Positions 25,001 to 61,839 of a stretch of DNA of 64,000 nt are shown piece by piece. How positions within the stretch are numbered: position 1 is the stretch's first letter; every line of letters starts with the position of its first letter. A program made the translations under genes and the position numbers. The notes under the pieces were generated by a model, which saw only the letters and a list, made by a program, of their open reading frames with translations, made no database searches and had not been told where the DNA came from. Source of the DNA: an uncultured bacterium (GTDB lineage: Bacteria > Patescibacteriota > Minisyncoccia > Phycocordibacterales > PALSA-1337); assembly GCA_903825415.1 (NCBI GenBank), contig CAIKAN010000028.1:3474-67473 (forward strand). The letters run 5' to 3'.

Positions 25001-25135
25001 GCGCATATCATTTTCTCTGCATTGGTTAAAATCGCCTCCGCCGACTGCATCCATATCTTGCCTTACCGGAGGCGGCAAGATATGGGCAATTGTAGTTTCG
25101 GCTCAATCGCATTAACCCATGCGAAAGAAACTACA
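25001..25135. repeat. palindromic element, family 2, copy 1 (MITE/RPE-like)
   Basis: Conserved core AATCGCCTCCGCC…ATATCTTGCCTTACCGGAGGCGGCAAGATATGGGCAATTG…ATCGCATT. It is flanked by a copy-specific inverted repeat GCATTGGTTAA / TTAACCCATGC. Confidence 0.6.
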
Positions 25136-25192
25136 TTCACGAAGCTCGCAGGGAGGAGCGTTTACACATCATTCGGAGATTCGGCCTGAAGC

Positions 25193-26002
25193 GTGTTAGA
25201 ATATGGCAAAACAATCATGGCCAAATCGTTGAAAAGAGAGCAGAAGAACAAAAGGGAGGAGAATTGGCTTCATAGGCGCGTACATTGGCGATCCGCAGCT
25301 ATCGCTCTCACGATAGTTACAATAGCAGGAGTGCTCATCTTAAATAGAGGGATCACGATCATCATATCTAGCGATCAATATCCTACATACGCCTCTATGC
25401 CCATAAAGGAGATAGTTCGTGGCGATGCGACCAAAAAACAGGTCATCTTTACTTTCGATGGAGGAGATGGAGTGCAATCAGCAGATAAGATCATGACGGT
25501 TCTAGCGGAGCATAAGGTTACGGGCACTTTCTTTTTGACAGGAAAATTCGTCGAGAAGAATCCTATACTCGTGAGAAAAATGGCTTTATCGGGAAATGAG
25601 ATATTCAATCATACTTATGATCATCCGCATCTGCCGGAATTATCTGCCGAAGAGATCGGGCGTGAATTGGCGATGATGGATCAAACTACAGAAAGAGTGA
25701 GTCGTTATATTCCAAGGAAATATTTTCGTGCTCCCTATGGCGATCGTGATCAGAGGGTCTTGGCGGCCGCGCAGGCAGCAGGTTATGAATCGATTTATTG
25801 GACAGTCGATGCCCGCGATTGGCAAGAACCGGAGGGGGAGACTGATGCCTCGGTCAAGGCGCGTATCCTCTCGACCCTTGCTCCAGGAAATATCTATCTC
25901 ATGCATATAGGCGATAATATCACTGGCAATATACTCGATAGCGTTTTTACCGAGATCGAGAAGCGCGGATACAAGATCGTTTCTCTCACACAGGGGTTGT
26001 AA
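25193..26002 (+). CDS. polysaccharide deacetylase (NodB-type carbohydrate esterase family 4)
   Basis: FTFDGGDG and HTYDHPH motifs. N-terminal TM. Confidence 0.75.
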   Translation: MLEYGKTIMAKSLKREQKNKREENWLHRRVHWRSAAIALTIVTIAGVLILNRGITIIISSDQYPTYASMPIKEIVRGDATKKQVIFTFDGGDGVQSADKIMTVLAEHKVTGTFFLTGKFVEKNPILVRKMALSGNEIFNHTYDHPHLPELSAEEIGRELAMMDQTTERVSRYIPRKYFRAPYGDRDQRVLAAAQAAGYESIYWTVDARDWQEPEGETDASVKARILSTLAPGNIYLMHIGDNITGNILDSVFTEIEKRGYKIVSLTQGL

Positions 26003-26227
26003 TAGCTGGATTTTCTTCGCAGACGAAAGCGTAGGTTTGTCTTAGTTTTGGATCTGCGGGACTCGCGTCTTAAATTGCAAGGTTTTTCGGCTCGACGGAG
26101 CGACCAAAAAACCTAGCAATTTTACGACGCTCAAACACCGTCCTCGATCCAAAACTAAGACAAACCTCCGCTTTCGTCCGCGGCACGGGTTTGCTCTTTA
26201 TCATTTGTTCACTTATAATCAAGCCCT

Positions 26228-26878
26228 ATGAATACAAAAAGAATCGTCTTCTGGCTCATATTCGCCGTAGTTATAATCTTGATAGTTTGGGGTCTCATCG
26301 TTGCTATGAATAAGCCGCCCAAAGGCAGCAGTTTTGGCATACCGGCGCCTGTGACTTTGGCTGATCATATCACTGGCCCTGCGAATGCTCCTGTTACTCT
26401 GATCGAATATAGCGACTTCCAATGTCCAGCTTGCGAGAATTATTATCCGGTCGTCGAAAGGCTCCTTTCGGAGAGTTCGACTACTCTACGTGTCGTCTAT
26501 AGGCAATTTCCTCTTTCACAGCATGCCAATGCTATGCCTGCCGCTATGGCCTCCGAAGCAGCTGGCGCGCAAGGCAAATTCTGGGAGATGTATCGTGAAT
26601 TATTCTCGAATCATACCGATTGGACCGAGCTGACAAATCCTACGGATGTATTCGTAGGCTATGCTACGAAGATCGGTCTCGATATCCCCAAATTCAAGGC
26701 TGATCTGGCTAGCTCGACTCTTCGAGATATCGTGAATGCCGATGAGCAGGAGGGTATATCTTTGGGAATCAATTCTACGCCCACATTCTTTGTGAATGGA
26801 AAAGTCCTCGTTAATCCGGAAAATTATGACCAATTTAAAGCCATTATTGACTCGGCCGCTCAGGCCAGTGTCCAATAA
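26228..26878 (+). CDS. DsbA-like thiol:disulfide oxidoreductase
   Basis: N-terminal TM and CPAC active site (YSDFQCPACENYYP). Confidence 0.7.
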   Translation: MNTKRIVFWLIFAVVIILIVWGLIVAMNKPPKGSSFGIPAPVTLADHITGPANAPVTLIEYSDFQCPACENYYPVVERLLSESSTTLRVVYRQFPLSQHANAMPAAMASEAAGAQGKFWEMYRELFSNHTDWTELTNPTDVFVGYATKIGLDIPKFKADLASSTLRDIVNADEQEGISLGINSTPTFFVNGKVLVNPENYDQFKAIIDSAAQASVQ

Positions 26879-27296
26879 GATAATCATCTTCGCCTTTCTT
26901 GTGGCGCTCATCGGCTTTTGCGATGCCACATATCTCTCCATCGAGCATTTCCGGGGAGTGGTTCCGCCTTGCTCCATTACTGCAGGCTGTGAAAAAGTCT
27001 TAACCAGCTCATATGCAGTTGTCGCAGGTATTCCTGTTTCGCTGGCCGGGTCTTTTTATTATCTTGTTGTTCTTATCGGGCTCCTTGCTTATTTGGAAAG
27101 CGGCAATCTCAAGATACTCAAACAGACTCTATTTTTGACCTTCTTGGGATTGTTGGCTTCTCTCGGCTTCATCTATGTTCAAGTGTTCATAATCGGCTCA
27201 TATTGTTTATATTGCATGGGCTCGGCCATCACATCTACGATCCTATTCGTTACAGCGGTGGGTATTATCAATAGTCAGCCTCATTTCCATGAATGA
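26865..27296 (+). CDS. vitamin K epoxide reductase (VKOR) family protein, a DsbB-like partner for the adjacent DsbA
   Basis: TM helices with the CDATYL…C and CLYCMG (CxxC) VKOR signatures. The track ORF starts at 26796 inside dsbA, so a later alternative start (GTG at about 26866) is likely. Confidence 0.55.
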   Translation, partial: PVSNKIIIFAFLVALIGFCDATYLSIEHFRGVVPPCSITAGCEKVLTSSYAVVAGIPVSLAGSFYYLVVLIGLLAYLESGNLKILKQTLFLTFLGLLASLGFIYVQVFIIGSYCLYCMGSAITSTILFVTAVGIINSQPHFHE

Positions 27297-27434
27297 TCGG
27301 GTGTTCATGCGTGCATCGATTGAATTTTCAATTTACAAATTCCAATTTTCAATCAATTTCCAATATTCAAATTTTCAAATAGAAACATGCAATAATTATT
27401 GTCATATTTACAAGTCTTAGATTAATAATGAAAT

Positions 27435-28457
27435 ATGGAAATCTTGATCACAAAACCTAGCGCCGATTATGAGCTTCTAGATTCTGGAGAAGGGGAGAAA
27501 CTGGAACGATTCGGTGAGATAATATTGGCGCGACCAGATCCTCAAGCTCTCTGGAGAAAGAACGATCCTGCTTCTTGGAAAAAGGCGGGAGGGACATTCT
27601 CGCGCGACGGGAAAGGCGGAGATTGGTCTATGAAGAAGGATACGCCCGACAAATGGCAGATCGATCTGGCGGGACTGAAGTTCGTGATCAAACCGACGGC
27701 TTTCAAGCATGTGGGGGTGTTTCCCGAGCAGGCGGGGAATTGGGAGTGGGTTGAAGAGAAAATTTCAAAATCCAAAATCCAAATTTCAAATCAAATCCAA
27801 AATCCAAATGACGAATCGCGTCAGCCGCGACCGTCGCAGGCGGCGACAAGTGGCGACTTTGGCGGAGCGCAGCGGAGCCAAACGAAGGCACTTCGTCGCG
27901 CCGAGGAGGGAGCGGGGTACGAAGCAAACGATGAGATTGAAGTGCTTAATTTGTTCGGTTACACAGGCGGGGCGACTCTTGCTTGCGCAAAAGCTGGAGC
28001 CAAGGTAGTGCATGTCGATGGATCGAAATCAGCGATCGCTTGGGCCAGAGAGAATGCCGAGCTTTCAGGCTTAAAAGACAAGCCGGTGCGTTGGATCCTG
28101 GAAGATGCGCGCTCTTTCGTGAAGAGGGAATTGAAGCGCGGAAGGAAGTATGCTGGCATCATCATGGATCCTCCTGCCTTCGGCCATGGTCCGGACAATG
28201 AGCTGTGGAAGATTGAGGATGATTTCCTCCCTCTCATCGATGATTGCATGAAGCTCCTTTCGGATGCGCCGCTCTTCTTCATCATCAATGGGTATTCTGC
28301 TGGCTATTCCGCCATTGCTTATGAAAATAATTTGAAACCTTTACAGGAAAGATATGGGGGAGATATCGAGATGGGTGAGTTGGCTATTCAGGAATCCAAG
28401 ACCGATAGGCTCTTGCCTTGTGGGATATTCGCGAGATGGAGCGCAAAGAATAATTAG
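27435..28457 (+). CDS. RlmI/YccW-family SAM-dependent rRNA (m5C) methyltransferase carrying an in-frame repeat-element insertion
   Basis: The C-terminal half NLFGYTGGATLACAKAGAKVVHVDGS…IIMDPPAFG is a class I MTase. Residues encoded by 27757-27925 are low-complexity plus a GC-rich element. Confidence 0.7.
   Translation: MEILITKPSADYELLDSGEGEKLERFGEIILARPDPQALWRKNDPASWKKAGGTFSRDGKGGDWSMKKDTPDKWQIDLAGLKFVIKPTAFKHVGVFPEQAGNWEWVEEKISKSKIQISNQIQNPNDESRQPRPSQAATSGDFGGAQRSQTKALRRAEEGAGYEANDEIEVLNLFGYTGGATLACAKAGAKVVHVDGSKSAIAWARENAELSGLKDKPVRWILEDARSFVKRELKRGRKYAGIIMDPPAFGHGPDNELWKIEDDFLPLIDDCMKLLSDAPLFFIINGYSAGYSAIAYENNLKPLQERYGGDIEMGELAIQESKTDRLLPCGIFARWSAKNN
27808..27925 (-). repeat. GC-rich element, family 1, copy A (inverted orientation, inside a CDS)
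   Basis: Its reverse complement matches 53444-53552 and 54982-55100 (CCGCTCCCTCCTCGGCGCGACGAAGTGCCTTCGTTTGGCT…CGCCAAAGTCGCCACTTGTCGCCGCCTGCGACGGTCGCGGCTGACG…ATTCGTCATT). Confidence 0.65.
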
Positions 28458-28555
28458 AAAGGCATATTACGATGCCGTTAGAGAGTTTGGTGGGCATATC
28501 GCCTAATCACCAAAGTCGAATTTAGCAAGTCTCAGTTTTATGCTATGCTCATCCC

Positions 28556-29383
28556 ATGTCTGCCTTGATCATCGATGGCAAGAAGGCTCGAGAAGCTCTG
28601 CTCCTAGAGTTTGAGAAAAAGATAAAGGCCCTTTCTCGCGTGCCGACTTTGGCTATCATACAGGTAGGAGATCGCCCGGATTCTTCTTCATTCATTCGGG
28701 CCAAGAAATCATTTGCCAAGAAGATAGGCGTGAATGAAAGGCATATCCAATTACTGGAGAATGTTTCCCAGGAAGAGTTGATCGCTGAAATTGAGAAGTG
28801 CAATACCGATGAAGCCATTCAAGGAATAATCTTACAATTGCCTATACCGGATCATTTGAATAAAAGGGCTGCCATCGATTCCATTGATCCCAAGAAAGAT
28901 GTAGATGCTCTGACTTCCAAGAGTGTGGCGTTATGGACGGCTGGGAAAGGTATATTACCGGCTACCGCCAGAGGTATCCGCGAATTATTGAGATTTTACA
29001 AGATCGATTTGGAAGGGAAGGAGGTGACAGTTGTAGGGCGTTCTGAATTAGTAGGCACTCCCATAGCGGTGATGTGCAGGAATGAGGGAGCGATTGTGAC
29101 GGTCTGTCATAGCAAGACGGTTTCTTTATCAGAAGGGACTAGGCCGGCTGATATCTTGATCGTGGCGGTTGGAAAGCCGAAACTTATCGGCTTAGAACAT
29201 GTGAATAGCGGGCAAATCGTGATAGATGTGGGAATCTCTCGTATCGGGGAGGGAACATTGGCAGGCGATGTAGATTTTGAATCCGTGAAGGATGTGGTGG
29301 CGGCTATCTCTCCTGTACCAGGAGGAGTCGGGCCTATGACAGTCTTTGGATTATTCGAAAATCTGGTTGACTTGTCAAAATAA
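28556..29383 (+). CDS. folD: bifunctional methylenetetrahydrofolate dehydrogenase/cyclohydrolase
   Basis: IIDGKK…PTLAIIQVGDRPDSSSFIRAKKSFAKKIG…VVGRSELVGTPIAVM…. Confidence 0.85.
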   Translation: MSALIIDGKKAREALLLEFEKKIKALSRVPTLAIIQVGDRPDSSSFIRAKKSFAKKIGVNERHIQLLENVSQEELIAEIEKCNTDEAIQGIILQLPIPDHLNKRAAIDSIDPKKDVDALTSKSVALWTAGKGILPATARGIRELLRFYKIDLEGKEVTVVGRSELVGTPIAVMCRNEGAIVTVCHSKTVSLSEGTRPADILIVAVGKPKLIGLEHVNSGQIVIDVGISRIGEGTLAGDVDFESVKDVVAAISPVPGGVGPMTVFGLFENLVDLSK

Positions 29384-29532
29384 CCATCTTTGTGATAGGG
29401 TATCTCTCGGACATAGATCGCTCTCCTAGGTATAGCATCCGGCACAATGAATCCATGCAAGTCCTCTCGGATGCGTATCTCATGTTCGGTGCGAGGCAAC
29501 TCGCCTTCCCTTGCTCCGACAGATCATGGCCA

Positions 29533-30639: not shown

Positions 30640-30721
30640 GTATAAAGATCTTGTCTAGGATAAAAAAACCAGAGGCATGCCCCTGGTGTTCTTGCGGATC
30701 ATGATAGACCTTCGGTGTTCA

Positions 30722-44028: not shown

Positions 44029-44757
44029 ATGTATAGCATCCAAACTACCCCTGGTTTCATCATCGATTCGCGGGCATACGGCGAAGCGGGGAAGATGTTA
44101 TTCATTTTCACGAGAGATCTGGGTTTGGTCATGGCGGTGGCGCAGGGGATACGCTTCGAAAGATCGAAGCTGCGGCCTTTCACGCAAGACTATTCATTCG
44201 GGGAATTCTCATTTGTCAGAGGGAAAGAGATGTGGAGATTGACGAGCGCGCAGGAATTCGATGAGTCCGGCGAGCTCGGTGAATATCATTTTCCCTTGTC
44301 AGGTAAAATCGCCTGCTCCAATTGCAACCGTATCATGGCTTGCCAGAGGCGCCAAGATACGGGCAATTGTAGCAGGCTCGAATCGCATTACCTGACAAGG
44401 GAAAATGATATTCACCGAGCTCGCCTACGCTCTGAATTGATAGCACGAGTAGCTTCGCTCCTTCGGCGATTCCTTCGAGGGGAAGAAGCGCATCCTGAAT
44501 TATTCGAATGTGTGAGGGCTTGTGGCGTCTTCTTGGCTAGCGATGAAGGCGACCTGACTTCAGAACAAATGGAGACACTTGAATCGTTGATCGTGATCCG
44601 CATCTTGCATAATCTAGGATATGTGGGGGATGTCTCGGGTTTGAATGGGGAAGTCTCTTCCAATGAGATCAGTCTGAGCTTGCTCGATGGCTTGAAACAA
44701 CATAGGGTGGCGATGAATAGGCATATAAACAAAGCGTTGAAGGAATCGCATTTATAA
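44029..44757 (+). CDS. recO: DNA repair protein RecO carrying an in-frame palindromic-element insertion
   Basis: N-terminal OB-fold region (…GKMLFIFTRDLGLVMAVAQGIRFERSKLRPFTQ…) and a C-terminal helical domain. Residues encoded by 44281-44413 correspond to the repeat element. Confidence 0.65.
   Translation: MYSIQTTPGFIIDSRAYGEAGKMLFIFTRDLGLVMAVAQGIRFERSKLRPFTQDYSFGEFSFVRGKEMWRLTSAQEFDESGELGEYHFPLSGKIACSNCNRIMACQRRQDTGNCSRLESHYLTRENDIHRARLRSELIARVASLLRRFLRGEEAHPELFECVRACGVFLASDEGDLTSEQMETLESLIVIRILHNLGYVGDVSGLNGEVSSNEISLSLLDGLKQHRVAMNRHINKALKESHL
44281..44413. repeat. palindromic element, family 2, copy 2, with perfect 26-bp terminal inverted repeats, located inside recO
   Basis: GAATATCATTTTCCCTTGTCAGGTAA … TTACCTGACAAGGGAAAATGATATTC are perfect reverse complements. 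The core AAAATCGCCTGCTCCAATTGCAACCGTATC…GGCGCCAAGATACGGGCAATTGTAGCAGGC…ATCGCATT has nested inverted repeats. Confidence 0.75.
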
Positions 44758-44901
44758 ACGTTGATTGTTATAAACAGTAGCGGCAAGAGAGGAGGAGACT
44801 GAGAGGCTTGACTTCTATCTAATATTTGCTAACCTTTTAGATGAAGAAAACTTTCGGCCGCAGTTCTATACGACTGCAACTTGGCGGAGGGTTTTTTTCT
44901 T

Positions 44902-45306
44902 TTAAGCCGGAAAGACTGACATAAAATACTTTTGCTTGTGCTTATTCTCTTTGATCTGAACATAGAATAACTCTCCAGTATGAATTTGACCGATAAATCT
45001 ATGGAGTATCTCTGATTTTCTCATGGGATTTGTCTGAGAATACGGTTTTAACATTGTATTCTCAATGAGATCTAGAGCACAAAGATAATATTTGAGACGG
45101 CGTACGCGATCATGCATATTCTTTTCTCTAAGATGTGCCCAGAAATAATCTAGTAATATCTTCTCTTTTTTGAAATATTTCGATCTGATATATGGCCGCC
45201 TTTTGGTTCTGGATTCGATATCCTTGTATATAGATAATGCCGTCGGATAGATTTCCGAATATTTTGTTCCAGCAAGCGGCCGCATCATCGTCTTGAATAT
45301 ATTCAA
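44902..45306 (-). CDS. hypothetical protein
   Basis: ORF only. Basic and Tyr-rich. No motif recognised. Confidence 0.3.
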   Translation of the reverse strand: MNIFKTMMRPLAGTKYSEIYPTALSIYKDIESRTKRRPYIRSKYFKKEKILLDYFWAHLREKNMHDRVRRLKYYLCALDLIENTMLKPYSQTNPMRKSEILHRFIGQIHTGELFYVQIKENKHKQKYFMSVFPA

Positions 45307-45777
45307 GGTTTCCAGATTCTATCAAACCATTATGAAAAAACGCTGAATTTTTGTTCAAAAAAGGATAAAGTTTTTGTGAGCTATTGGTTTTCAATAATAT
45401 CTGGGGAGGGAATATCAGATAGGAGCAATGAAAGATCCCCATAGGGCTACGGATATGGTATGGAGTGCGATCAAGAAGCGGTGTTTAGAGGAGAGAGGCC
45501 TTGCGGTCTCTCACACTGCTTCCTTATCTGATCCCAAGTTATATCCATAGCCCCATGGGGACTAGGTTTCAGCTTTCGCTGATCGAGGTGATGGTGACTC
45601 TATGAGCCTACAGATCCCAGATCCTATAAGCTCATTAAAGTGGAGTAATTTTTGACAAGTTTTACTCCGTGATCAGTACGGATACCGATCAAACTTGCCA
45701 AGGAGGCGATCCTTGGGGTCGTGCCGCTGCGCTCTGCGGCCGAGGTTATGGAAGGTTTATTTACGACCTATAAAGAA

Positions 45778-47364
45778 CTACAATTTGAGACCGTCTAAGA
45801 CACCCCAGACTTCTTTTCCCAGACCAAAACCCTCTGTATTCTGCCCGACCAAAGGTGTGGATGCCTCCGAAGTCTCTTCTATCGACTGTGGCGGTTCAGG
45901 ATCTGATGGTGTCGTTACGGTTTTGGTCAACTGTAGAAGCAACTTTTTCTCATACACCTTTGCTAGCGCTTCCACATGAGCCACTGTTGGACTACTCATC
46001 CCTGACTCCCAAAGCGCTCGATTGGCCAGCTCCTTTGGATCTGTCCACTGAACGAGGTCCACCCTTTTATTCTCCTGTTGTTTTCCATTCAGGGTGACGC
46101 TTTTGATCTTTCCCATCGTTCCTTTGTCTCCAAAAGGAATCTGACACTTTGAAGGATGGCCTCGGAACCACTCACCGTAGCTCCATTCGCCTCTCCTGCT
46201 ACCTGTCTTTCCCACGATAACCAAGACGTCGTTTTGTCCCGGCATTTCAAGAATGGGCAAGAGGTCGTTAGTGCCGCAACTGACGCGGACGAATCCTTCT
46301 GGTGCAGTCGGGATTTCGTTCAGGCGGCTTTGCAGCCACTTGTATTCATCAGGCGACAGACGCTCGCCTTTGACAAAGTAAACGATCTCCTTGCATTTTC
46401 CATCGTCGTCATAACGATCTTCGGCGGTGCTCGTCAACACACCCTGTGTTTCGATGAACAGTTGCCAGAGATGATCGAGGCGGTCTTGGCGGATCTTTTC
46501 CGCACCGAACACCAACCGTTCCAATTCCGAGATATCCTCTTTATTGAACCGATAGAAGCGTTCGCGTTTTCCCGGCCAATTCTTCTCGTAACGGATGGTA
46601 TGGGCCGATTTTAACCCTGGAGACATCGGGAAATAACTGATGTCTCCGTTTATTTCTCCACCCAATGTCTCAAATATCAGGCCATAGTGGCCATTGGGAC
46701 ATGAATGGTCTCTCAGTGCTGTCCCATCTCTCCTGGCCACTTCCTCCAACCGCGCCATGAACTGCTGGCGCAGGGGAAAGACTTCTGCTTCGGTTTGGAG
46801 AAATTTCTCAACCTCTTCGAGAGGTGCGACCCATAGCCGGCTTTCTAATTTGCCTCGTATGCGCTCTTTCCTAAGAAGAAATGCTGCGGCGTTGCCAAAA
46901 GCGAGCAGGGTATTGGTCTCCACATCTGAGTTCGGAGTGTCACTGAGGACTTCCGAAATCACTGCACCCCATGATGGGTTGCCGGATTCAGACGCGCACT
47001 CAACGATCCCGAGTCCGGGAATACCGTACTGGCCAAGAAGGCGAGTAACCTTGCCCAAGTATGATTGCTTGGCGCTCTCGCGCTCCTCCTGCACAGCTTT
47101 GACCGTATCATTCCGACGCTCAGCAAGGATGCCTCGCCCTTCGTCGAGCACCTTTCTGAGAGTTTCTGGTTCCGCGTCCGGGATGATCATTCCGCCTTTT
47201 GACAAGACGATCCCAAACTTACGGAACTCATCGGGTGCGATTTCGTAGTTACCTACGAATGTACCACCCTTCTTTGCGGCGGCGATTGAACCGCCCCACA
47301 GATATTTTGCGAACGATTCGTTCGCAACAATAACATCCGTGGTAATTTTTTCAAATTTCGGCAT
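45778..47364 (-). CDS. hypothetical 528-aa protein at the distal end of a higher-GC island
   Basis: Long ORF with GC richer than the flanks. No motif recognised by eye. Confidence 0.4.
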   Translation of the reverse strand: MPKFEKITTDVIVANESFAKYLWGGSIAAAKKGGTFVGNYEIAPDEFRKFGIVLSKGGMIIPDAEPETLRKVLDEGRGILAERRNDTVKAVQEERESAKQSYLGKVTRLLGQYGIPGLGIVECASESGNPSWGAVISEVLSDTPNSDVETNTLLAFGNAAAFLLRKERIRGKLESRLWVAPLEEVEKFLQTEAEVFPLRQQFMARLEEVARRDGTALRDHSCPNGHYGLIFETLGGEINGDISYFPMSPGLKSAHTIRYEKNWPGKRERFYRFNKEDISELERLVFGAEKIRQDRLDHLWQLFIETQGVLTSTAEDRYDDDGKCKEIVYFVKGERLSPDEYKWLQSRLNEIPTAPEGFVRVSCGTNDLLPILEMPGQNDVLVIVGKTGSRRGEWSYGEWFRGHPSKCQIPFGDKGTMGKIKSVTLNGKQQENKRVDLVQWTDPKELANRALWESGMSSPTVAHVEALAKVYEKKLLLQLTKTVTTPSDPEPPQSIEETSEASTPLVGQNTEGFGLGKEVWGVLDGLKL

Positions 47365-47612
47365 ATAGCCTTTCCACCTCCTCCCAGCATCTTTGATGGA
47401 AGAGATTGTTCTGTTGTCGGGATGCTCCGACTGTTGTTGACTAACTGATCAACCCGCGATTCCTATCGTGGGCTGAAAAAGTTTGGTGAATGTCCGCATA
47501 CATTCACCATTGGGAACCGCATTATGCATCAAGCGGGATGCAAGAGGTTTTTTCAATGAGTCCTTCTAAACTCATAAATGTTTTCAGCGTGTACATTCAA
47601 CGTCTCGTTTCT

Positions 47613-48146
47613 TTAGCCTGCGATCTGACCGAGCAGGTGGCGGTACACCATAGCTGCTACCGCCGAATCGTAGAGGGGATTATGCGTCCCACCCTCGAAC
47701 TCGCCGACGGACAGATTGTGTTTCTTCACATATCCATCCACCGAGGTCGCATCCTCGCCTGCCTGTTGCAGGTTTCCGCTTACATCGTAGAGCGGGTAGG
47801 GTGCATCCCAGTCGCCAATGAGCTTCTGGGTGTGCATGTCGCGAAGAACTTTCGTCTCTACGATGTAGCCCATGTGAACGACCACATCGGCTCCCTCCTT
47901 GTTGGCTTTGTAGAAGGCCGCGAAGGCAGCGAGGAGTGCCTCGTACGTGTCGTGGGTCACGGGGATGTTTGCGATCTTGGGGAGGACGTTCTCCTTGACC
48001 CAAGGGTCGGTGACTTCCGTGTCCGGGAGCCGTCCGACAAACCGAGCGATTTCGGAGCCTTTCTCGTCATAGACGAGCGCACCGATGGCGAACGCCCGTC
48101 CCCACAGCCCGTTTGTTTCGGCGTCAAAACTAAACAATGTCTTCAT
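47613..48146 (-). CDS. DEDDh-type 3'-5' exonuclease (DnaQ/oligoribonuclease-like fold)
   Basis: Exo I motif FSFDAETNGL (D-x-E) and Exo III motif H-x4-D (THNPLYDSA). 177 aa. Confidence 0.55.
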   Translation of the reverse strand: MKTLFSFDAETNGLWGRAFAIGALVYDEKGSEIARFVGRLPDTEVTDPWVKENVLPKIANIPVTHDTYEALLAAFAAFYKANKEGADVVVHMGYIVETKVLRDMHTQKLIGDWDAPYPLYDVSGNLQQAGEDATSVDGYVKKHNLSVGEFEGGTHNPLYDSAVAAMVYRHLLGQIAG

Positions 48147-48515
48147 ACTGTAATTCCATTTCTTTTCCTGATTTTTCCGCCGGAATCGCGGTCAAGCCAT
48201 CATGCTCCTGCGTTAGGTTTCACGCAGAAACAGGTTGCTGCCAGACAAGCAACACCGGACAAGAGCCGAAGCTCCACATGCGAGCTGATGGTTGAAACAA
48301 TCTTCTTGAACACCTCCTTTGAAGAGAGATGCTCAAGATACTGTTCCAACGATAAACACCTATGTTATGAACAAAGGCTCTACCGACCGCCGAGATCTCT
48401 CTCAGCAAGCGGATAAAGTCCAGCACCGATCTTTCGATGGTGCTGGGAATTAATGAACGCCGCAGCGTTCATTGTGATGGTGATCAAGCAACTATGAGCC
48501 TGCGGGCTCACTGGA

Positions 48516-49238
48516 CTATTCGCTGGAGTAGAGCAGTGCCTCGAGCTGCCCTATGGTTTTGGCTTTTTCCGATGCGTACTGAGGATTGCCGAGCCAACCG
48601 AGACTCGGGTCCTTCCAGATGGAAAGAGCGACCGACCCTCCAGCGTTTGGAGAATCATTCTCCAGTGATTCCGCGAAATCCGCCGCGGGGCGAATCTCTT
48701 CGGAGACGAGACGGTTGAGTAGGTGACCAAGGTCACCCAGGGCGGCCATGAGGCCATCCCAAATCTGGGTGTGTCTCTTGGCCGATTTGAGGGAGACGAT
48801 GCCCTCAATGTAGTCGTTGAAGTCTCCGGCGCCGTCGTCTTTCTCGCCTTTCTTGGCGCAGAGGGAGAGTCGGAATCCGTATTCGTCTTCCAAGGAGGTG
48901 ACGATGTCTTTGATGGGCACGCCGGCTCGGATTTTCGACGACAGGCCGTCGAAGGTCATGTGGCCGATGGTCACCTGACCTTTCAATACGGCCACCTCGC
49001 CGGGAAAGTTGCCCCTCCCGGCGATTGGATTCCAGAACTTATATCCGCTGTCGGTCTTGTAGACCTCTTCATGGATATCGAGCCTGATGGTGGAATTCAA
49101 GTTGCACTTTTTGGCCCACGCACGGACGATCTTCTCGTCCGCCGAACCCCACTTTCCATCTCGTTCAATGGCGACATCGATGTCGCCTGCGGCCGTCGTA
49201 GAAACAGAACTGCCGAATATTACAATGATTCTTGCCAT
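48516..49238 (-). CDS. nucleotidyltransferase-fold (Pol-beta superfamily) protein with an unknown C-terminal domain
   Basis: N-terminal IIVIFGSSVSTTAAGDIDVAI matches the hG[GS]-x9-13-DhD minimal NTase signature. The rest is unassigned. Confidence 0.5.
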   Translation of the reverse strand: MARIIVIFGSSVSTTAAGDIDVAIERDGKWGSADEKIVRAWAKKCNLNSTIRLDIHEEVYKTDSGYKFWNPIAGRGNFPGEVAVLKGQVTIGHMTFDGLSSKIRAGVPIKDIVTSLEDEYGFRLSLCAKKGEKDDGAGDFNDYIEGIVSLKSAKRHTQIWDGLMAALGDLGHLLNRLVSEEIRPAADFAESLENDSPNAGGSVALSIWKDPSLGWLGNPQYASEKAKTIGQLEALLYSSE

Positions 49239-49542
49239 AAGTACTCTTTGATTTTTGTTGTTGATGTTTAACTGCGGATTTCAAACCTGAATGATCAGGC
49301 CTAAAATCCGTAGTTAAAATTTGTAACAACAAATAGCTATGGCAGAACGATTAGACTTACGAACACGGTCGAATCACTCTACCGGATGCCGAGATCTTCC
49401 TCAACGGCCGGATAAAGTGGAGAAGTGACCATACTTTAATGAACACTTCTCCGACATTCATCAAAGGCAAGAGCTCGCAATACCGCTCTTGCTGTTAACC
49501 AAAGAACCATTTGCGCATTGCGATACGCACCCCGGAAAGGGA

Positions 49543-49779
49543 CTATTTGAGCAGGGCGGTCAGCTCGCTAGCCGCCTCACCACCACCGTTGTGATCGAGC
49601 CATTCGACCACCCGGTCGAACACTTCGCGAGGCACCGTAACAGGCGCCACCGCCTTCGCCCATCCGGCTGCCAATTGGTTCCCAAACTGCCGGAGAGTTT
49701 GCGGGTCGACCACCTCGGCGACCCCGAAGCTGCCGTCAGCCGCTCCAGTTTCCCGGAGAATTTTTGTTGTGATCATCAA
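49543..49779 (-). CDS. hypothetical small protein
   Basis: 78-aa ORF. GC-rich. No motif. Confidence 0.25.
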   Translation of the reverse strand: MMITTKILRETGAADGSFGVAEVVDPQTLRQFGNQLAAGWAKAVAPVTVPREVFDRVVEWLDHNGGGEAASELTALLK

Positions 49780-49887
49780 CTCTCATTCACCACACGGCGG
49801 TGAGACTCTTTGATCATTCAAACTACAGCTCGCACTTGCGAGCAAATCAAATAGTAGAAGCTCCAGATGGCCTTCTACTATAGGGGA

Positions 49888-49918
49888 TCTTGCGACCCCT
49901 CTTGTCTTGCCGACCTAG
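49888..49918. repeat. 31-nt direct repeat TGCGACCCCTCTTGTCTTGCCGACCTAGAAG, copy 1, part of a roughly 75-nt repeated unit
   Basis: Identical 31-mer at 50519-50549. The extended units share …GTCAGCA…AAGAGGRRTAACATT. Confidence 0.65.
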
Positions 49919-50100
49919 AAGCCCAGTATGCTTCAAGTCAGCAGTAAAAGAGGGGTAACATTTTGACTCTACTGTTTTCGTCCTTTAGGACTCATCAGTC
50001 GGGATACGCATCCCGAGAACAGTGGGGGAGATGGATTGAACATCTCCCCGTCACGATCTAAAAAGAACTATTTTTTGCCAGTGTGGCGGTGACGGGAGTT

Positions 50101-50367
50101 CTATAGATAATGTTCTTTTCTGTAGAACTCTTCGGTAGCGTAGGATATTCTCCCCATTCCTACCTCCACTTGGTAACGGGCGTGTGCTCGTCCCAGATCC
50201 CACCTGAGGGTGGAATCCAACCTTGCCTTCTTCCTCAGGATTGCGTGACGCAGTCCTGAGATCCATGTGGTCGCTGCCCACATGATGGCCCAAACAGCCG
50301 CCATGATAGCAACCATCGCCACCAGCCCCATCAAACCACCGACGAAAGCTTTAAATAGCATGAACAT
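50101..50367 (-). CDS. small membrane protein (single TM); start chosen at the internal Met with a good RBS
   Basis: MFMLFKAFVGGLMGLVAMVAIMAAVWAIMWAATTW… is preceded on the minus strand by AGGAGaaaagttATG. Flanked by the 31-nt direct repeats. Confidence 0.4.
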   Translation of the reverse strand: MFMLFKAFVGGLMGLVAMVAIMAAVWAIMWAATTWISGLRHAILRKKARLDSTLRWDLGRAHARYQVEVGMGRISYATEEFYRKEHYL

Positions 50368-50518
50368 AACTTTTCTCCTCCCAGTATTATTCGGCATACT
50401 GGAGCCGTTTTGAAGATGTTTGAATGCCGGCACATCTTCGTAAGCCGGAAGACTTCCGCTATACTTATTCGTATAGTCTTTTGCTAGGATCACTACCCAG
50501 GCTACTCGCCTAGGAATT

Positions 50519-50549
50519 ATGCGACCCCTCTTGTCTTGCCGACCTAGAA
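50519..50549. repeat. 31-nt direct repeat, copy 2
   Basis: Identical to 49888-49918. Confidence 0.65.
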
Positions 50550-51284
50550 GTATTTTACGCTATCGGTCAGCACGACGAAGAGGAATAACATTGCAGAACT
50601 ATTTGTTCCGCGTTTTCCCATTCAAGGAAATGCAAAGCATCTCGCTTGAACTTTATCTTCGCTATTCTACTGTCAAACATCATCCTTGTCTTTTACCTTC
50701 ACTTTCCTTCTTCGCATAAAGCCTTGAAGGACTTCAGGTCACAAGGACATTTCCGTCAAGAAAGCATACCTTCTTGTCTAGTCTGTCCTCACGACTGCGG
50801 ATTTTCAAAAGGGAAGTGATGTCGTCTTGCCATCATAGTTCGATGAAATCACTATAATAAACAAAAGCGGTCCATATATCCCTTCAAATCAAATAGAGAA
50901 GAGATATATAGACCGCCTTTCTTGTGATGAGCATATCAATAATGCCCCAAAGCGATGTTATAGGACTCTCCTCTAAGAAAATCCATGTATTCGTTTGTTA
51001 TGTACATACCGTACTCTGACTCATATAGTCTAGCATACCCTGTACAAACTGTCAAGTATATTTCATTATGTTTATGTAGTCATGAGAGTATGGCTCAGAA
51101 TATGGGTATTTTGAGAGGCCTATTTCATATTCTCTTGAGCATTTTTTTGTGGTTGTTGAAATAGGTTGCATCTCCATGAATTTTCTCCGCCAATCGGCGG
51201 ATTCAAATTCCCCTTCTTCGCTCCTCGTGGTTCGACTAGCTCACCACAAGTTACCTCGGAGCTTCGCAGGGCAAGCAAATTCCA

Positions 51285-51410
51285 ATTTTCAATCAAATTT
51301 CAATGAAATAATCTCCAATCGATCGGTCATGGTTCTTTCTAATGAAAATTTGAGACTTGTAAATTGATTGAAAATTGGAATTTGAAAATTGGTCATTCGA
51401 CCATATTCAA
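51285..51410. repeat. AT-rich 'ccaatt/ttcaat' hexamer array with inverted-repeat symmetry
   Basis: TTCCAATTTTCAATCAA … TTGATTGAAAATTGGAA. Confidence 0.5.
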
Positions 51411-51470
51411 CACACAGCCTTTTGGTTACCAGACGGATTTGTAGTCTAAATATATGTTATAATCTGACAA

Positions 51471-53417: not shown

Positions 53418-53443
53418 TAGAAAAAATTAATATAGTAAATTAC

Positions 53444-53552
53444 TCCGCTCCCTCCTCGGCGCGACGAAGTGCCTTCGTTTGGCTACGCTACGCTCCGCCA
53501 AAGTCGCCACTTGTCGCCGCCTGCGACGGTCGCGGCTGACGAGATTCATTTT
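53444..53552 (+). repeat. GC-rich element, family 1, copy B (intergenic, upstream of glyS)
   Basis: CTCCGCTCCCTCCTCGGCGCGACGAAGTGCCTTCGTTTGGCTACGCTACGCTCCGCCAAAGTCGCCACTTGTCGCCGCCTGCGACGGTCGCGGCTGACGAGATTCATTTTTGG. Confidence 0.65.
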
Positions 53553-53586
53553 TGGTAATTATGCGGTTTTAGTATAGAATACCCTC

Positions 53587-54972: not shown

Positions 54973-54981
54973 ATGCAAAAT

Positions 54982-55152
54982 CACCCCGCTCCCTCCTCGG
55001 CGCGACGAAATGCCTTCGTTTGGCTCCTCCGCCAGCCGGCGGATCCGCCAAAGTCGCCATTTGTCGCCGCCTGCGACGGTCGCGGCTAACGCAATTCGTC
55101 ATTTTTGCATTTTACATTGTCATTTTCCATTTTGATTTTTACATTTTACATT
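54982..55152 (+). repeat. GC-rich element, family 1, copy C, plus an AT-rich CATTTT-type tail (between glyS and the peptidase gene)
   Basis: CACCCCGCTCCCTCCTCGGCGCGACGAAATGCCTTCGTTTGGCTCCTCCGCC…GCCAAAGTCGCCATTTGTCGCCGCCTGCGACGGTCGCGGCTAACGCAATTCGTCATTTTTGCATTTTACATTGTCATTTTCCATTTTG…. Confidence 0.65.
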
Positions 55153-57654: not shown

Positions 57655-57656
57655 TT

Positions 57657-57686
57657 AAGGACTAGCCACTAGTGGCTAGTCCCTTG
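57657..57686. repeat. perfect 20-nt palindrome ACTAGCCACTAGTGGCTAGT (probable terminator hairpin); the related GCCACTAGTG motifs are at 56440-56520
   Basis: Self-complementary sequence. The motif recurs 3 times around the transporter gene. Confidence 0.5.
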
Positions 57687-57728
57687 CGCGCGCTTGGTTT
57701 TTGGGCCTTTTCCATGTAGACTTTCATC

Positions 57729-59237
57729 ATGTCTAAGGAAACAAAGATGAAGCCTTTCTATATAACTACTACGATTCCGTACGTGAACGCGGAAGCCCAT
57801 ATAGGCCACGCCCTTGAATTTGTCCGTGCGGATATCATCGCGCGCTCAAAGCGATTGTCGGGCTATGAGGTATTTTTTAACACTGGAACCGATGAGCATG
57901 GCATCAAAGTCTTTAAAATAGCTGAACAATTAGGTCTCGAACCACAGGTCTATGTCGATCAGATATCGATTAAATTCAGAGAGATCATGCCTTTATTGGG
58001 TATCAGCGATGATGTGAATTTCATCCGTACTACGGATGCTCATCATATCAAGGCTGCGCAAGAGTTCTGGAATATCGTTAAAAAGAACGGCTATATCTAC
58101 AAGAAAGATTATTCCATAAAATACTGCATCGGTTGCGAGCTGGAGAAGACCGATTCTGAATTGGTGGACGGGCATTGTCCTCTTCATCCGAATCAGGATA
58201 TCGAGATCGTCAAAGAAGAGAATTACTTTTTCAAATTCAGCGCTTTTCAGAGACAGCTACTTGAATTATATTCATCACATCCGAAACTGGTGATCCCTGG
58301 TTCGCGACTGAATGAGATCAGAGCTTTCGTGGAAAGAGGACTGGAAGATTTCAGCATTTCCAGACTGAAGAGCAAAATGCCTTGGGGTGTTCATGTGCCG
58401 GATGATGACCAGCATGTGATGTATGTCTGGTTCGATGCTCTGGTGAATTATATCTCGGCGATAGGTTGGCCAGACGATGTGATTCAAGAAAAAGAAGCCC
58501 CCGGATCATTCAAGAAATGGTGGATAGAGAGCGGCGGGGTAGTGCAATATTGCGGCAAAGACAATCTCCGTCAGCAATCGGCGATGTGGCAGGCAATGCT
58601 CATGGCGGCGGGATTGACGCAGTCGCAGACCATCATCATCGATGGATTTGTGACCGGTGAAGGCGGTATCAAGATGTCGAAGTCTCTGGGCAATGCCGTC
58701 GACCCTCTTGAGATCGTCAGAGAATATGGCGCCGACGTCTTCCGATATTATGTGGCTCGTGAGCTTTCTCCCTTTGAAGACAGCCCATTTACGGTTGATA
58801 AATTCAAGGAAGCCTACAATGCTCATCTGGCGAATGGTTTAGGCAATCTAGTGAGCCGGGTCATGAAGATGGCTACCGCGAATGGTATAGCGCTCTATGA
58901 AGGAGATAAGTCTCGATCAGATTTCTCCAGCACAGACGAGGGGGTGGCTGCGATCAAGGGGTATGGAGAAGGCTTCAATGGATTCGATCTGCAAAGCGCT
59001 TCGAATGTGATCTGGAGCTTGATATCGAAAGCGGATTCGATCATCCAAGAGCGCCAGCCTTTCAAGAAGATAAAGACGGATCGAGCAGAAGCGGAGAGAG
59101 ATATCCTTGAATTGTTGGGCCGCCTTGAATTTATCGCCAAATCATTGTTACCTATAATGCCTGAAACAGCGCGCAAGATCATCGAACTCATTCGGAAAAA
59201 TGAAATGCCAGCATCTCCGCTATTCGCAAGGAAATGA
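57729..59237 (+). CDS. metG: methionine--tRNA ligase (short form)
   Basis: TTTIPYVNAEAHIGHALEF (HIGH), CxxC knuckles (CIGC…CPLH) and KMSKSLGN. Confidence 0.9.
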   Translation: MSKETKMKPFYITTTIPYVNAEAHIGHALEFVRADIIARSKRLSGYEVFFNTGTDEHGIKVFKIAEQLGLEPQVYVDQISIKFREIMPLLGISDDVNFIRTTDAHHIKAAQEFWNIVKKNGYIYKKDYSIKYCIGCELEKTDSELVDGHCPLHPNQDIEIVKEENYFFKFSAFQRQLLELYSSHPKLVIPGSRLNEIRAFVERGLEDFSISRLKSKMPWGVHVPDDDQHVMYVWFDALVNYISAIGWPDDVIQEKEAPGSFKKWWIESGGVVQYCGKDNLRQQSAMWQAMLMAAGLTQSQTIIIDGFVTGEGGIKMSKSLGNAVDPLEIVREYGADVFRYYVARELSPFEDSPFTVDKFKEAYNAHLANGLGNLVSRVMKMATANGIALYEGDKSRSDFSSTDEGVAAIKGYGEGFNGFDLQSASNVIWSLISKADSIIQERQPFKKIKTDRAEAERDILELLGRLEFIAKSLLPIMPETARKIIELIRKNEMPASPLFARK

Positions 59238-59275
59238 TCATTTTAGAACTCAGCACATATCGTTTCTTTGGATCA

Positions 59276-59330
59276 AGCAAAATCGCCTCCGCCAATTGCA
59301 ACCATATCGAAAACGCCTTCCAATTTACTT
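59276..59330. repeat. palindromic element, family 2, truncated copy (left half only)
   Basis: AAAATCGCCTCCGCCAATTGCAACCATATCG… matches the core 5' half and lacks the 3' half. Confidence 0.5.
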
Positions 59331-59339
59331 CATAGTCAA

Positions 59340-60158
59340 ATGAAATACATCGATATCCACAGCCACATAAATTTTGCCGCTTATGATGCCGATAGGGAGG
59401 CGGTGATAGAGCGCGCACGGAATGCGGGCGTCGCCATGATAGATATCGGCACGAATCTGGAAACCTCAAAGAAGGCGGTGGAATTGGCGGAGAAGCATCC
59501 TGACCTTTACGCGACTGTAGGATTGCATCCTGTGCACACTTCAAGTCATCCCCATCCTGATCCGCATGAATCAGTGGAGGCGGGCGATGGCTTCTTCGAG
59601 GTGCCTGATATGGACGCCTATAGGGCATTGGCTGCCAAAGATAAGGTCGTTGCGATCGGCGAATGCGGGCTGGATTTTTTTCATCTTGATGAAGATCAGA
59701 CATCGCTTCAAAAGAAAGTATTTGAATCGATGGCAGACCTTTCCTTGGAAGTTAACAAACCATTGATGCTTCATTTGAGGAGCGAATCTGGCCGTTCGGC
59801 CTATAATGAAGCATTCGATATCTTGAAATCCAAACCGGGTATCGCTGGCAACCTGCATTTCTATGCAGGGAGCATTGAAGAGGCGAAACCATTTTTGGAT
59901 ATGGGATTTACTTTTTCGTTTACAGGAGTTATCACTTTTGCCAGGAATTATGACGAAGTCATCAAGTATCTGCCGATGGATAGTATAATGTCCGAGACCG
60001 ATTGCCCTTATGTGGCTCCGAAGCCATATCGTGGGAAAAGGAATGAGCCGGCTTATGTCATTGAAGTTGTCAGGGCTTTGGCGGGGATAAAAGGAGTAGA
60101 TGAAGCTGTTATGGCAGGGCAGATCATGGAAAATGCGAAGAGGGTATTCGGAGTGTAA
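59340..60158 (+). CDS. tatD: TatD-family metal-dependent deoxyribonuclease
   Basis: MKYIDIHSHINF…GLHP…ECGLDF…SFTG…ETDCPY. The track start at 59268 would include the repeat remnant, so ATG 59340 is preferred. The terminator GCGGAGGtcagaCCTCCGC plus a T-run follows at about 60161-60205. Confidence 0.8.
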   Translation: MKYIDIHSHINFAAYDADREAVIERARNAGVAMIDIGTNLETSKKAVELAEKHPDLYATVGLHPVHTSSHPHPDPHESVEAGDGFFEVPDMDAYRALAAKDKVVAIGECGLDFFHLDEDQTSLQKKVFESMADLSLEVNKPLMLHLRSESGRSAYNEAFDILKSKPGIAGNLHFYAGSIEEAKPFLDMGFTFSFTGVITFARNYDEVIKYLPMDSIMSETDCPYVAPKPYRGKRNEPAYVIEVVRALAGIKGVDEAVMAGQIMENAKRVFGV

Positions 60159-60389
60159 GCGGAGGTCAGACCTCCGCGGAAATTTTATCCTTTTTTTATC
60201 AGAAATTCAGCGTTTTTTCATAATGATCTGATACACTTTGAATAGCTTTGTGTATGATTGTTCACAGTAACAATTCTTGCGCAAAGCAGCGTTCCGTGAT
60301 AGTCTCATTTCATTATAAGTAATCGTGATCAGTCCCTGTCCTAGGCGGGGTTCCGAGCATCATGGCGAGGATCACTGGTCGCATACAAA

Positions 60390-60905
60390 ATGAACGAAAC
60401 TACCAACGAGCGCGCGTCCGTTTATGAAGTCAGCTATCTCATCGCTGATTCGGTGCCTGAGGAGAAGGTCCAGACCGAGTCTGATGCGGTCAAGAAGATT
60501 GTCCTCGATTCGGGGGCGACGGTGATAGCCGAGGAGAATCCTCATCGGGAGAGCTTGGCTTATTCTATCCGCAAGAAGACCGTATCGGGTGCTTATGATT
60601 CTTATGATAAGGCGTATTTCGGCTGGATCAAATTCGAGGTCGGATCTGACAAAGTCGAAGCTATACGCAAGTCTGTAGAGCTATACCCAGCAGTCTTGAG
60701 GGCGCTAGTCATATCGACAGTCCGTGAGAATACCTATCTGGGAAAGAGGGCAACTATGATCGCGGCATCATTCGCTCCCAAGATGGATACTCTGGTCACC
60801 AGAGCTGAAGTCAAAGAGGAAAAGAAAGAGCCCAAGAAAGAGGTCGTTCACGCTTCTGTCGAGGATATGGACAAGAGCATCGATGAGATGGTCAAGGAGT
60901 CATAG
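60390..60905 (+). CDS. rpsF: 30S ribosomal protein S6 (with a long acidic C-terminal extension)
   Basis: YEVSYLI…; rpsF-ssb-rpsR context. Confidence 0.8.
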   Translation: MNETTNERASVYEVSYLIADSVPEEKVQTESDAVKKIVLDSGATVIAEENPHRESLAYSIRKKTVSGAYDSYDKAYFGWIKFEVGSDKVEAIRKSVELYPAVLRALVISTVRENTYLGKRATMIAASFAPKMDTLVTRAEVKEEKKEPKKEVVHASVEDMDKSIDEMVKES

Positions 60906-60959
60906 TAGTTATAAAAATATCGGTCAGTCAGGCCGATATCTAGTGGGCGATCACAATAT

Positions 60960-61427
60960 ATGTATCTAAACAAAGTGTTCATTATAGGGAATCTGACTCG
61001 CGATCCTGAGCTCAAGGCACTGCCTTCAGGGAGCAAGGTCTGCAGTTTCGGAGTCGCTACCAATCGCGTCTTCAAGGACAAGGAGGGCGCCAAGCAAGAA
61101 TTGACAGAATTCCACAATATCTCAGCCTTCAACAAGCTCGGGGAATTGTCTGGACAATATCTCAAGAAAGGCCAGCAGGTATTGATCGAGGGAAGGATAC
61201 AGACTCGTTCATGGGATGGACAAGATGGACAAAAGAGGTATCGCACTGAGATCATTGCCGACAATATCCAGTTCGGCCCCAAGGGCACAGGGTCCGGCAG
61301 CTCAGCAGGAGCTTCATCGTCACAGGCTCCATCTTCTGGAAAGAATACCGAGATGCCAGCTTCGGAACCTGGAGAGAAGATCGATTATCCGCAAGAAGAG
61401 ATCAATCCAGACGATATACCATTTTAA
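60960..61427 (+). CDS. ssb: single-stranded DNA-binding protein
   Basis: MYLNKVFIIGNLTRDPEL… OB fold, Gly/Ser-rich linker and an acidic C-terminal tip DDIPF. Confidence 0.85.
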   Translation: MYLNKVFIIGNLTRDPELKALPSGSKVCSFGVATNRVFKDKEGAKQELTEFHNISAFNKLGELSGQYLKKGQQVLIEGRIQTRSWDGQDGQKRYRTEIIADNIQFGPKGTGSGSSAGASSSQAPSSGKNTEMPASEPGEKIDYPQEEINPDDIPF

Positions 61428-61461
61428 TCAAATAGCAGCATAAACCATAATCAGCAATCAT

Positions 61462-61665
61462 ATGAAAAAGCAATGTTATTTCAGCCAGCATAATATCAAG
61501 TATATAGATTACAAGGATACAGAGATCCTCAAGCGCTTCATCAATCCGCATGGCCGCATTGTGAGCCGCAAAAGGACAGGCATCTCAGCCAAGTTCCAGA
61601 GGCAATTGGCTACAGCTATCAAGCGCGCTCGTTTCATGGGTCTTATCCCATACGTAGCGAATTAG
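61462..61665 (+). CDS. rpsR: 30S ribosomal protein S18
   Basis: …[39 protein letters not shown]. Confidence 0.85.
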
Positions 61666-61684
61666 TGGGGTTACGTTGCATGTA

Positions 61685-61839
61685 AAATCCCCTCACATAT
61701 TCTTTCTTTGGGTATGGCAAGGTCGCCTGCGCCAATTGCAACCGTATCTTGCCTTACCGGAGGCGTCAAGATACGGGCAATTGTTGCTTCGGCTCAGATC
61801 ACATTGCCATACCCAAAGAAAGAATATGTGAGGGGATTT
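61685..61839. repeat. palindromic element, family 2, copy 4, with perfect 36-bp terminal inverted repeats, between the convergent rpsR and efp (candidate bidirectional terminator)
   Basis: AAATCCCCTCACATATTCTTTCTTTGGGTATGGCAA … TTGCCATACCCAAAGAAAGAATATGTGAGGGGATTT are exact reverse complements. The core is GGTCGCCTGCGCCAATTGCAACCGTATCTTGCCTTACCGGAGGCGTCAAGATACGGGCAATTG…. Confidence 0.75.

Follow-up and report, generated by a model that had tools for sequence, protein, structure and literature searches.

The stretch of DNA analyzed here, 64 kb of contig CAIKAN010000028.1 and referred to as the window in the following, stems from a member of the Patescibacteria/Paceibacteria whose nearest metagenome-assembled genomes (MAGs) are labelled Candidatus Taylorbacteria, as judged from homologues of RecO, elongation factor P (EF-P) and cysteine desulfurase. 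It harbors four copies of a palindromic repeat, each consisting, when intact, of a conserved core flanked by two arms that are reverse complements of each other. One of the copies resides within the recO gene. The repeat copies and the recO gene are located as follows:

44029..44757, + strand: recO gene, 242 aa, with an insertion between the OB fold and the C-terminal helical domain
44269..44425, + strand: intact repeat copy inside recO; left arm 44269-44306, core 44307-44387, right arm 44388-44425
61685..61839, + strand: intact repeat copy between the convergent genes rpsR and efp; left arm 61685-61720, core 61721-61803, right arm 61804-61839
25000..25145, + strand: decayed full-length repeat copy between genes for a DEAD-box helicase and a polysaccharide deacetylase; core at about 25030-25111
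59243..59308, + strand: truncated repeat copy between metG and tatD, comprising the left arm and the core up to CAATTGCAACCATATC

All four copies had been spotted in an earlier note made from the sequence alone and are indeed present at or near the positions given there, with core k-mer matches far above those in shuffled sequence. A 21-mer from the left part of the core matches four times in the window when up to three mismatches are allowed and not once in 100 shuffles, while for an 18-mer from the right part three matches were counted where 0.03 would be expected. With a profile made from all copies, nhmmer did not detect any further member in the 64 kb, and the copy density in the window is about one per 16 kb. 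The arms of the recO copy are perfect, as had been described, but they are 38 bp long (44269-44306/44388-44425; 38/38 Watson-Crick pairs) and not 26 bp, and the copy spans 157 nt in total. The 36-bp perfect arms reported for the copy between rpsR and efp were confirmed (36/36), with a total span of 155 nt. The copy around 25 kb, situated between neighbors that were assigned by Pfam, is decayed: its arms feature 23 paired positions, 6 mismatches and 6 gap positions, and the 11-bp arm once taken to be perfect pairs at 10 of 11 positions. Its apical stem contains a compensated change from G-C to A-T. The truncated copy, identical with repeat family D3 of our repeat scan of the window, starts at about 59243 and not at 59276 as first given; it retains the left arm and some 30 nt of the core, and matches the nhmmer profile at positions 4-64 only. 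Folded as RNA, the two intact copies form single long hairpins with energies of -114 and -100 kcal/mol (z = -17 and -16 compared with shuffles); the value for the recO copy folded as DNA is -71.8 kcal/mol (z = -16).

Beyond the window, we found 11 more full or partial copies in two metagenomes and in one Taylorbacteria MAG (GCA_026395075.1, termed the sister MAG below); ten loci in two samples were recovered when metagenome contigs were searched for a 24-mer of the core. Taken together, the family set consists of nine intact and two decayed copies plus several that are truncated or cut by a contig end. Intact elements are 149-165 nt long and are made up of a core of 81-83 nt and two arms of 33-41 nt. 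Between copies, the cores are 88% identical and the arms 56% on average, with a range of 43-74% for pairs among the nine intact copies and a baseline of 46% (sd 5%) for shuffled arms. The arms are thus largely copy-specific, in agreement with what had been noted before, but not strictly unrelated, because the identity exceeds the baseline and copies from the same organism have arm motifs in common, namely GCG-ATAT-C, a T-rich tract and GG(T/C)AA beside the core. It follows from these common motifs that the arms belong to the element. Conserved parts of the core are the stems CAATTGC/GCAATTG and CCGTATCTTGCC/GGCAAGATACGG, an 11-nt loop (TTACCGGAGGC) and an asymmetric bulge on the 3' side (TCAGATCGCA) that confers polarity on the element, and both CAATTG and GCAATTGC are exact palindromes. 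The inner stem is perfect in the recO copy (GCCTGCT/AGCAGGC) and present in an imperfect version that is 2 nt longer in the other copies. Two independently truncated copies, the one at 59 kb and one in the sister MAG (L073), end at the same breakpoint after CAATTGCAACC. In three out of 11 copies, all six reading frames are closed by stop codons.

The recO copy is translated straight through in a continuous open reading frame (ORF), just as the earlier note had it, and corresponds to residues 81-133 of RecO with the sequence KIACSNCNRIMACQRRQDTGNC. RecO from the window comprises 242 aa, compared with mostly 189-203 aa in its orthologues, and in an alignment with about 120 best homologues the peptide is missing from all of them except for the same insertion in the sister MAG, which corroborates an insertion between the OB fold and the helical domain; among these homologues, the peptide does not occur in RecO from any unrelated lineage. 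Pfam domain RecO_N covers residues 6-75, and the AlphaFold model exhibits strands at residues 9-76 and helices at residues 119-239, while the predicted local distance difference test (pLDDT) score for residues 72-108 is below 50. The insert occupies a linker that varies in this clade. Unrelated inserts are present at the same linker in RecO from other Paceibacteria (P0013, P0014, P0006 and P0092), and the linker looks like a spot where insertions recur. Those of P0013 and P0014 contain '...VIPA...AGIQ...LDPRFRGDD', which may resemble the translation of another palindromic repeat. Differences between recO of the window and that of the sister MAG amount to 10, 3 and 34 at the first, second and third codon positions, indicating that the gene continued to be under purifying selection after the insertion. 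A zinc-finger interpretation of the cysteine-rich insert was considered and rejected, as other copies lose the cysteines and pLDDT is below 50 in that stretch. A phmmer search with the insert peptide against 1.84 billion representatives returned a single match, a eukaryotic BED-finger repeat protein with a chance likeness of the pattern CxxCNRIxxC.

A second intragenic copy was detected on metagenome contig L068 in a gene for a class-V aminotransferase/cysteine desulfurase. It is again in frame, though in a frame other than that of the recO copy, and encodes SPAPIATVSCLTGGGKIRAIVAPAQ. At this site, L068 has 54 residues and seven orthologues have 3, resulting in a net gain of 51 aa or 153 nt, which is the length of the whole hairpin. 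The comparison of orthologous intergenic sites that the earlier note had proposed reveals occupied as well as empty states. In a syntenic relative (Joint Genome Institute (JGI) sample 3300075153), RecO has 193 aa, the gap between rpsR and efp that holds the 155-nt element in the window is empty (2 nt), and the gap downstream of recO, which is filled by a copy of the element in L066, measures 12 nt. The family is also absent from a syntenic stretch of 20.6 kb in another Taylorbacteria MAG. No empty site at the nucleotide level was obtained from L076 and L083, whose divergence is too great, or from L081, which does not differ from the window; the 61-kb locus is identical in two other samples, and one metagenome contig is 100% identical to window positions 59755-62822. 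These findings show that the copies entered very small intergenic spacers, and now and then tolerant linkers of genes, as whole units of arms and core, that intragenic copies survive only where their length and one stop-free frame preserve the ORF, and that there is no conservation of the encoded peptide, with two different frames in use. Because several copies are closed in all six frames, survival within genes is a filter and not a design feature. As far as behavior is concerned, the likening of the recO copy to selfish DNA of the Rickettsia type inside a housekeeping gene is thereby borne out.

The distribution of the family is narrow. A 17-mer from the core had 59 single matches in 185,579 species genomes, all of them due to chance and none extending past the seed, and four chance matches were obtained when viral contigs were scanned with a core seed. 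Searches of phage and plasmid collections with the element by blastn did not yield any match. In view of these negative scans and of the related Taylorbacteria stretch that lacks a copy, we regard the family as lineage-restricted.

Complementarity of the two arms within a copy is close to complete. Across the nine intact copies, 332 of 339 arm positions form Watson-Crick pairs without a single indel, and the arms are perfect in five of the nine despite lengths of 33-41 nt. Wherever arm length differs between copies, the difference is mirrored exactly in both arms. The seven mismatches comprise three G-T on the + strand, one on the - strand and three transversions, and hence do not exhibit a strand preference. 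Covariation was evaluated on an alignment of 11 copies with the structure predicted by RNAalifold, using shuffles and slid partners as controls. Out of 64 predicted pairs, 39 carry changes on both sides. Paired cells make up 94.6%, compared with 76.8% in shuffles and 33-45% with slid partners. Cells with double changes number 134 and those with one-sided (G-U) changes 8, a relation that is not matched by any shuffle or slid control, and many of the double changes are transversion swaps (GC to CG, AU to UA).

Orthologous copies allow the age of the arms to be assessed. The recO contig of the sister MAG (L072) begins inside the core of the repeat, and its junction with recO falls on the very nucleotide found in the window. 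Past the element, recO is 86% identical over 332 nt, with differences at 13 of 42 fourfold-degenerate sites, and 14 of 38 positions differ in the right arm of the repeat. For the desulfurase locus of L068 and the sister MAG, the flanks are 84-87% identical (differences at 9 of 35 fourfold sites) and 13 of 35 positions in the left arm are different; the right half of the sister-MAG copy (L073) has been lost. Arms of orthologous copies thus differ by 37%, compared with 26-31% at fourfold-degenerate sites. Were the two arms to drift independently, about 11 mismatched pairs per copy would be expected, whereas none is observed in the recO copy and one in that of L068. On the evidence of these alignments, the arms appear to drift at an approximately neutral rate, and the copies would then be old and yet still perfect. 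That they are not fresh also follows from the cores, which differ by 12% between copies. No two intact copies have their arms in common.

We propose that the repeats constitute a lineage-restricted, non-autonomous family of selfish palindromic DNA in Candidatus Taylorbacteria-like Patescibacteria, the arms of which drift in sequence and yet are corrected at the DNA level, and assign a probability of roughly 60% to this explanation. After insertion, a change in one arm would either be removed or be copied onto the other arm, such that reverse complementarity is kept. The most likely route would be intramolecular template switching at the hairpin during replication, i.e., quasipalindrome correction. 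In E. coli reporters, template switching turns imperfect inverted repeats or quasipalindromes into perfect ones (PMC7202029), and it has been put forward as what keeps inverted repeats perfect among orthologues in proteobacteria (PMC5941160). Such correction would account for the strict Watson-Crick pairing, for the mirrored indels and for the inward palindromization seen in the inner stem of the recO copy. Once pairing is lost or a copy is truncated, correction would stop and decay set in, as may have happened to the copies at 25 kb, in L063, at 59 kb and in L073, and this could explain why copies fall into a near-perfect and a decayed class. The conserved asymmetric core would be a candidate for the part recognized by a mobilizing enzyme acting in trans, or it may be kept uniform by exchange between copies.

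Several observations weigh against this proposal. Both orthologous copies in the sister MAG have one arm only, due to a contig break in L072 and a deletion in L073, and paired substitutions in situ are for this reason deduced and not seen on both sides. It is also conceivable that the arms differ at orthologous sites because one copy was replaced or because the same site was hit twice. Template switching as such is not visible in sequences; we infer it from the pattern it would leave behind. Two segments of the core are identical (28/28) between the recO orthologues even though neutral sites differ by about 31%. A combination of selfishness and neutral drift does not explain this identity, which suggests either a function or exchange between cores. 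A gene for a transposase or another mobilizing enzyme was not found among the window ORFs scanned, and mobility is proposed on the basis of insertion polymorphism. Finally, a target-site duplication is not visible at any of the nine intact junction pairs read, although one of 1-2 nt may exist.

A bolder interpretation, which we consider rather unlikely, is that the repeats represent a distinct class of bacterial mobile DNA in which an enzyme recognizes nothing but the asymmetric apical module and one arm serves to rebuild the long stem, through fold-back (hairpin-templated) synthesis in the course of transposition or through continuous correction in situ. If so, this would be a hairpin element with a freely drifting and always perfect stem and, after Rickettsia, another and independent instance of housekeeping proteins in a reduced genome being colonized by palindromic DNA.

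The note on which this study builds had raised the possibility of a long hairpin maintained by compensatory change, and the pattern is clearly there. A structured RNA, be it a dispersed non-coding RNA, a stabilizer of mRNA 3'-ends, an RNase III site or a terminator, would be one conceivable cause, with the stem under selection for RNA folding and a function residing in loop and bulge. The very strong covariation with compensatory changes in 39 of 64 pairs fits this idea, as do the conservation of the unpaired loop and bulge, the two core segments that evolve more slowly than neutral sites and the orientation of five out of six informative copies in the sense of flanking genes. However, the latter figure is not significant: at first sight, ten of 11 copies appeared to be sense to the upstream gene, and this bias was discarded because copies between convergent genes are uninformative, leaving five in sense and one antisense to both neighbors. 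Intermediates with G-U pairs, which an RNA stem should tolerate, are nearly absent (8 one-sided against 134 double-sided cells), mismatches are without strand preference, and the stability of a 38-bp helix does not require arm lengths to be mirrored exactly. Two copies reside inside coding regions, and Rfam 15 gave no match in the window at the gathering score and nothing but sub-threshold noise from microRNA hairpins at E <= 10. Nor does the suggestion hold that the intergenic copies are placed as bidirectional terminators. A scan of positions 59000-62500 for the terminator signature of a hairpin followed by a T-run flags neither element, two copies are inside genes, and on contig L062 an intact element is located directly 3' of a canonical intrinsic terminator (GCGCGACCCGCCCGGGTCGCGC followed by T7, positions 1087-1125), which makes the element dispensable for termination of the host gene at this locus. 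Near-absence of G-U pairs, symmetrical arm lengths and near-neutral drift favor templating at the DNA level over selection on an RNA stem, and strict Watson-Crick pairing, mirrored indels and missing wobble intermediates are probably the signature of one arm being copied from the other. We therefore consider a structured RNA improbable.

Equally improbable in our view is that perfect arms merely mark young insertions derived from diverse masters that were already palindromic, with old copies decaying uncorrected. The presence of two classes, nine near-perfect and two clearly decayed copies, would be expected under this assumption, and the presence/absence polymorphism shows that insertions have happened. 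On the other hand, no two of the nine intact copies have their arms in common (43-74% identity), the cores differ by 12% on average, and same-site copies in the sister MAG are 37% apart in their arms, matching the neutral divergence of the flanks and pointing at copies that are old yet perfect. A process that renders diverse masters perfect would still be needed. Distinctly less probable again is a DNA site beneficial to the host, for example one bound by a nucleoid, replication or recombination protein at the CAATTG-containing core, that has spread and been kept, with the arms promoting cruciform extrusion. Conservation of the core in situ beyond that of neutral sites, its content of exact palindromes (CAATTG and GCAATTGC) and a window density of roughly one copy every 16 kb are compatible with such a site, but copies decay or are truncated without obvious consequence, syntenic relatives have empty sites, the location in housekeeping genes looks parasitic and a candidate binding protein has not been identified. 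Next to no credence can be given to the notion, also contained in the earlier note, that the core alone is mobile and that arms are created upon insertion when one flank of the host is duplicated in inverted orientation: although arm sequences are largely copy-specific, such an origin of one arm is ruled out by the net gain of 153 nt in the desulfurase, which equals core plus both arms where core plus one arm would give about 118 nt, and arms at unrelated sites of one organism have motifs and layout in common while arm peptides lack counterparts in RecO or desulfurase orthologues.

As a class, the element is not new but resembles Rickettsia palindromic elements (RPE) and REPINs (doublets of repetitive extragenic palindromic (REP) sequences forming hairpins). 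RPE are dispersed palindromes of about 150 bp in a reduced genome that occur in frame in unrelated housekeeping genes and for which no associated transposase is known (PMC10969869). The family described here compares well with its 149-165 nt, its dispersed and palindromic nature and its in-frame presence in recO and a desulfurase gene with preservation of the ORF. In contrast to RPE families with a conserved peptide in a fixed frame, two frames are used here and three of 11 copies are closed in all six; furthermore, the host belongs to the Patescibacteria and the arms are hypervariable, and the likeness meant here is one of behavior. REPINs are long, non-autonomous hairpins in which compensatory changes on both sides are common and for which the single-stranded hairpin is presumed to be what matters (PMC3116915). 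Our elements likewise exhibit compensatory changes by which a long hairpin is maintained. However, the ends of REPINs (REP 16-mers) are invariant and the spacer is variable (PMC3116915), while here the center is conserved and the ends vary. In addition, REPINs are extragenic and our element enters genes, and a gene for RAYT, the transposase that mobilizes REPINs, was not found in the window. Bacterial miniature transposable elements with inverted repeats (MITEs) such as Correia/NEMIS and ERIC are small and dispersed, do not have an ORF of their own, have the potential to form hairpins and occasionally create in-frame fusions (PMC10969869), all of which applies here as well. Differences lie in the conserved terminal inverted repeats that MITEs derive from a parent insertion sequence and in their target-site duplications, whereas the termini are the least conserved part of our element and duplications are not visible. 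Likewise, integron attC sites have conserved outer R/L boxes and a variable center, the opposite of what is seen here, and an integrase is not among the nearby ORFs scanned. Quasipalindrome correction, on its part, turns imperfect inverted repeats into perfect ones and leads one to expect that arms evolve in concert, indels included (PMC7202029, PMC5941160). It is a mutational process and not an element family, and its documentation stems mostly from inverted repeats that are short, in proteobacteria and in reporter genes; 35-40-bp arms of a mobile repeat in Patescibacteria are not among the documented cases.

Patescibacteria have genomes of about 1 Mb that are almost devoid of spacer DNA. If the proposal of a selfish, arm-corrected family holds, a selfish palindrome is present about once per 16 kb in such a spacer-poor lineage, and its recO and desulfurase copies have been retained across a speciation event. 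Rickettsia-type selfish DNA in protein-coding genes would thus extend to a second lineage with reduced genomes. The orthologous copies would provide an unusually clean natural case of concerted arm evolution, with neutral-rate drift, perfect complementarity and mirrored indels, as predicted by the template-switch model and so far mostly shown for short inverted repeats. On the practical side, the repeats break MAG assemblies, as illustrated by two contigs that start or end inside a copy, and they inflate 'hypothetical' insert regions of annotated proteins.

Some further features of the window and of related genomes were recorded. Between recO and a DUF11/CLIPPER-like gene, there is a variable island of about 6.7 kb (44758-51470); two syntenic relatives lack it and have a 12-nt gap instead. 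Neither Pfam (four island ORFs) nor PHROGs and PADLOC (six) gave any match. The sister MAG carries different cargo at the island site, including a PDC-S01 candidate defense ATPase, and patches of the island are 95-98% identical to the sister MAG, compared with 86% in recO. The tatD gene (59340-60158), situated between metG and rpsF, is absent from two syntenic relatives, and its upstream boundary coincides exactly with the truncated repeat copy. A different Paceibacterium has, in the gap between efp and rpsR (L075 2568-2698, L074 3074-3200), a palindromic element of another kind, whose arms are GGTAAATAGCAA-AAACGCGG and whose core is branched; the family profile does not detect it.

Two additional repeat families are dispersed in the window. 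The first is GC-rich and about 110-125 nt long and occurs at 53437-53561 (+), 54977-55106 (+) and 27811-27918 (-) as well as in L069 (4072-4196), without an Rfam match at gathering score. Its 27.8-kb copy is in frame within an ORF for a methyltransferase dependent on S-adenosylmethionine (27435-28457), and this genome thus contains a second repeat family with an intragenic copy. The other is a short intergenic repeat of about 50 nt found on opposite strands at 45320-45373 and 60182-60234 and also in L064 (426-479) and L068 (3395-3447). Lastly, a diversity-generating retroelement occupies positions 850-3416. Its variable repeat (VR, 1424-1537) lies at the C-terminus of ORF 852-1583, the template repeat (TR) is located at 1901-2014 and the RVT_1 reverse transcriptase is encoded at 2379-3416; 17 of 18 mismatches between TR and VR fall on template adenines.

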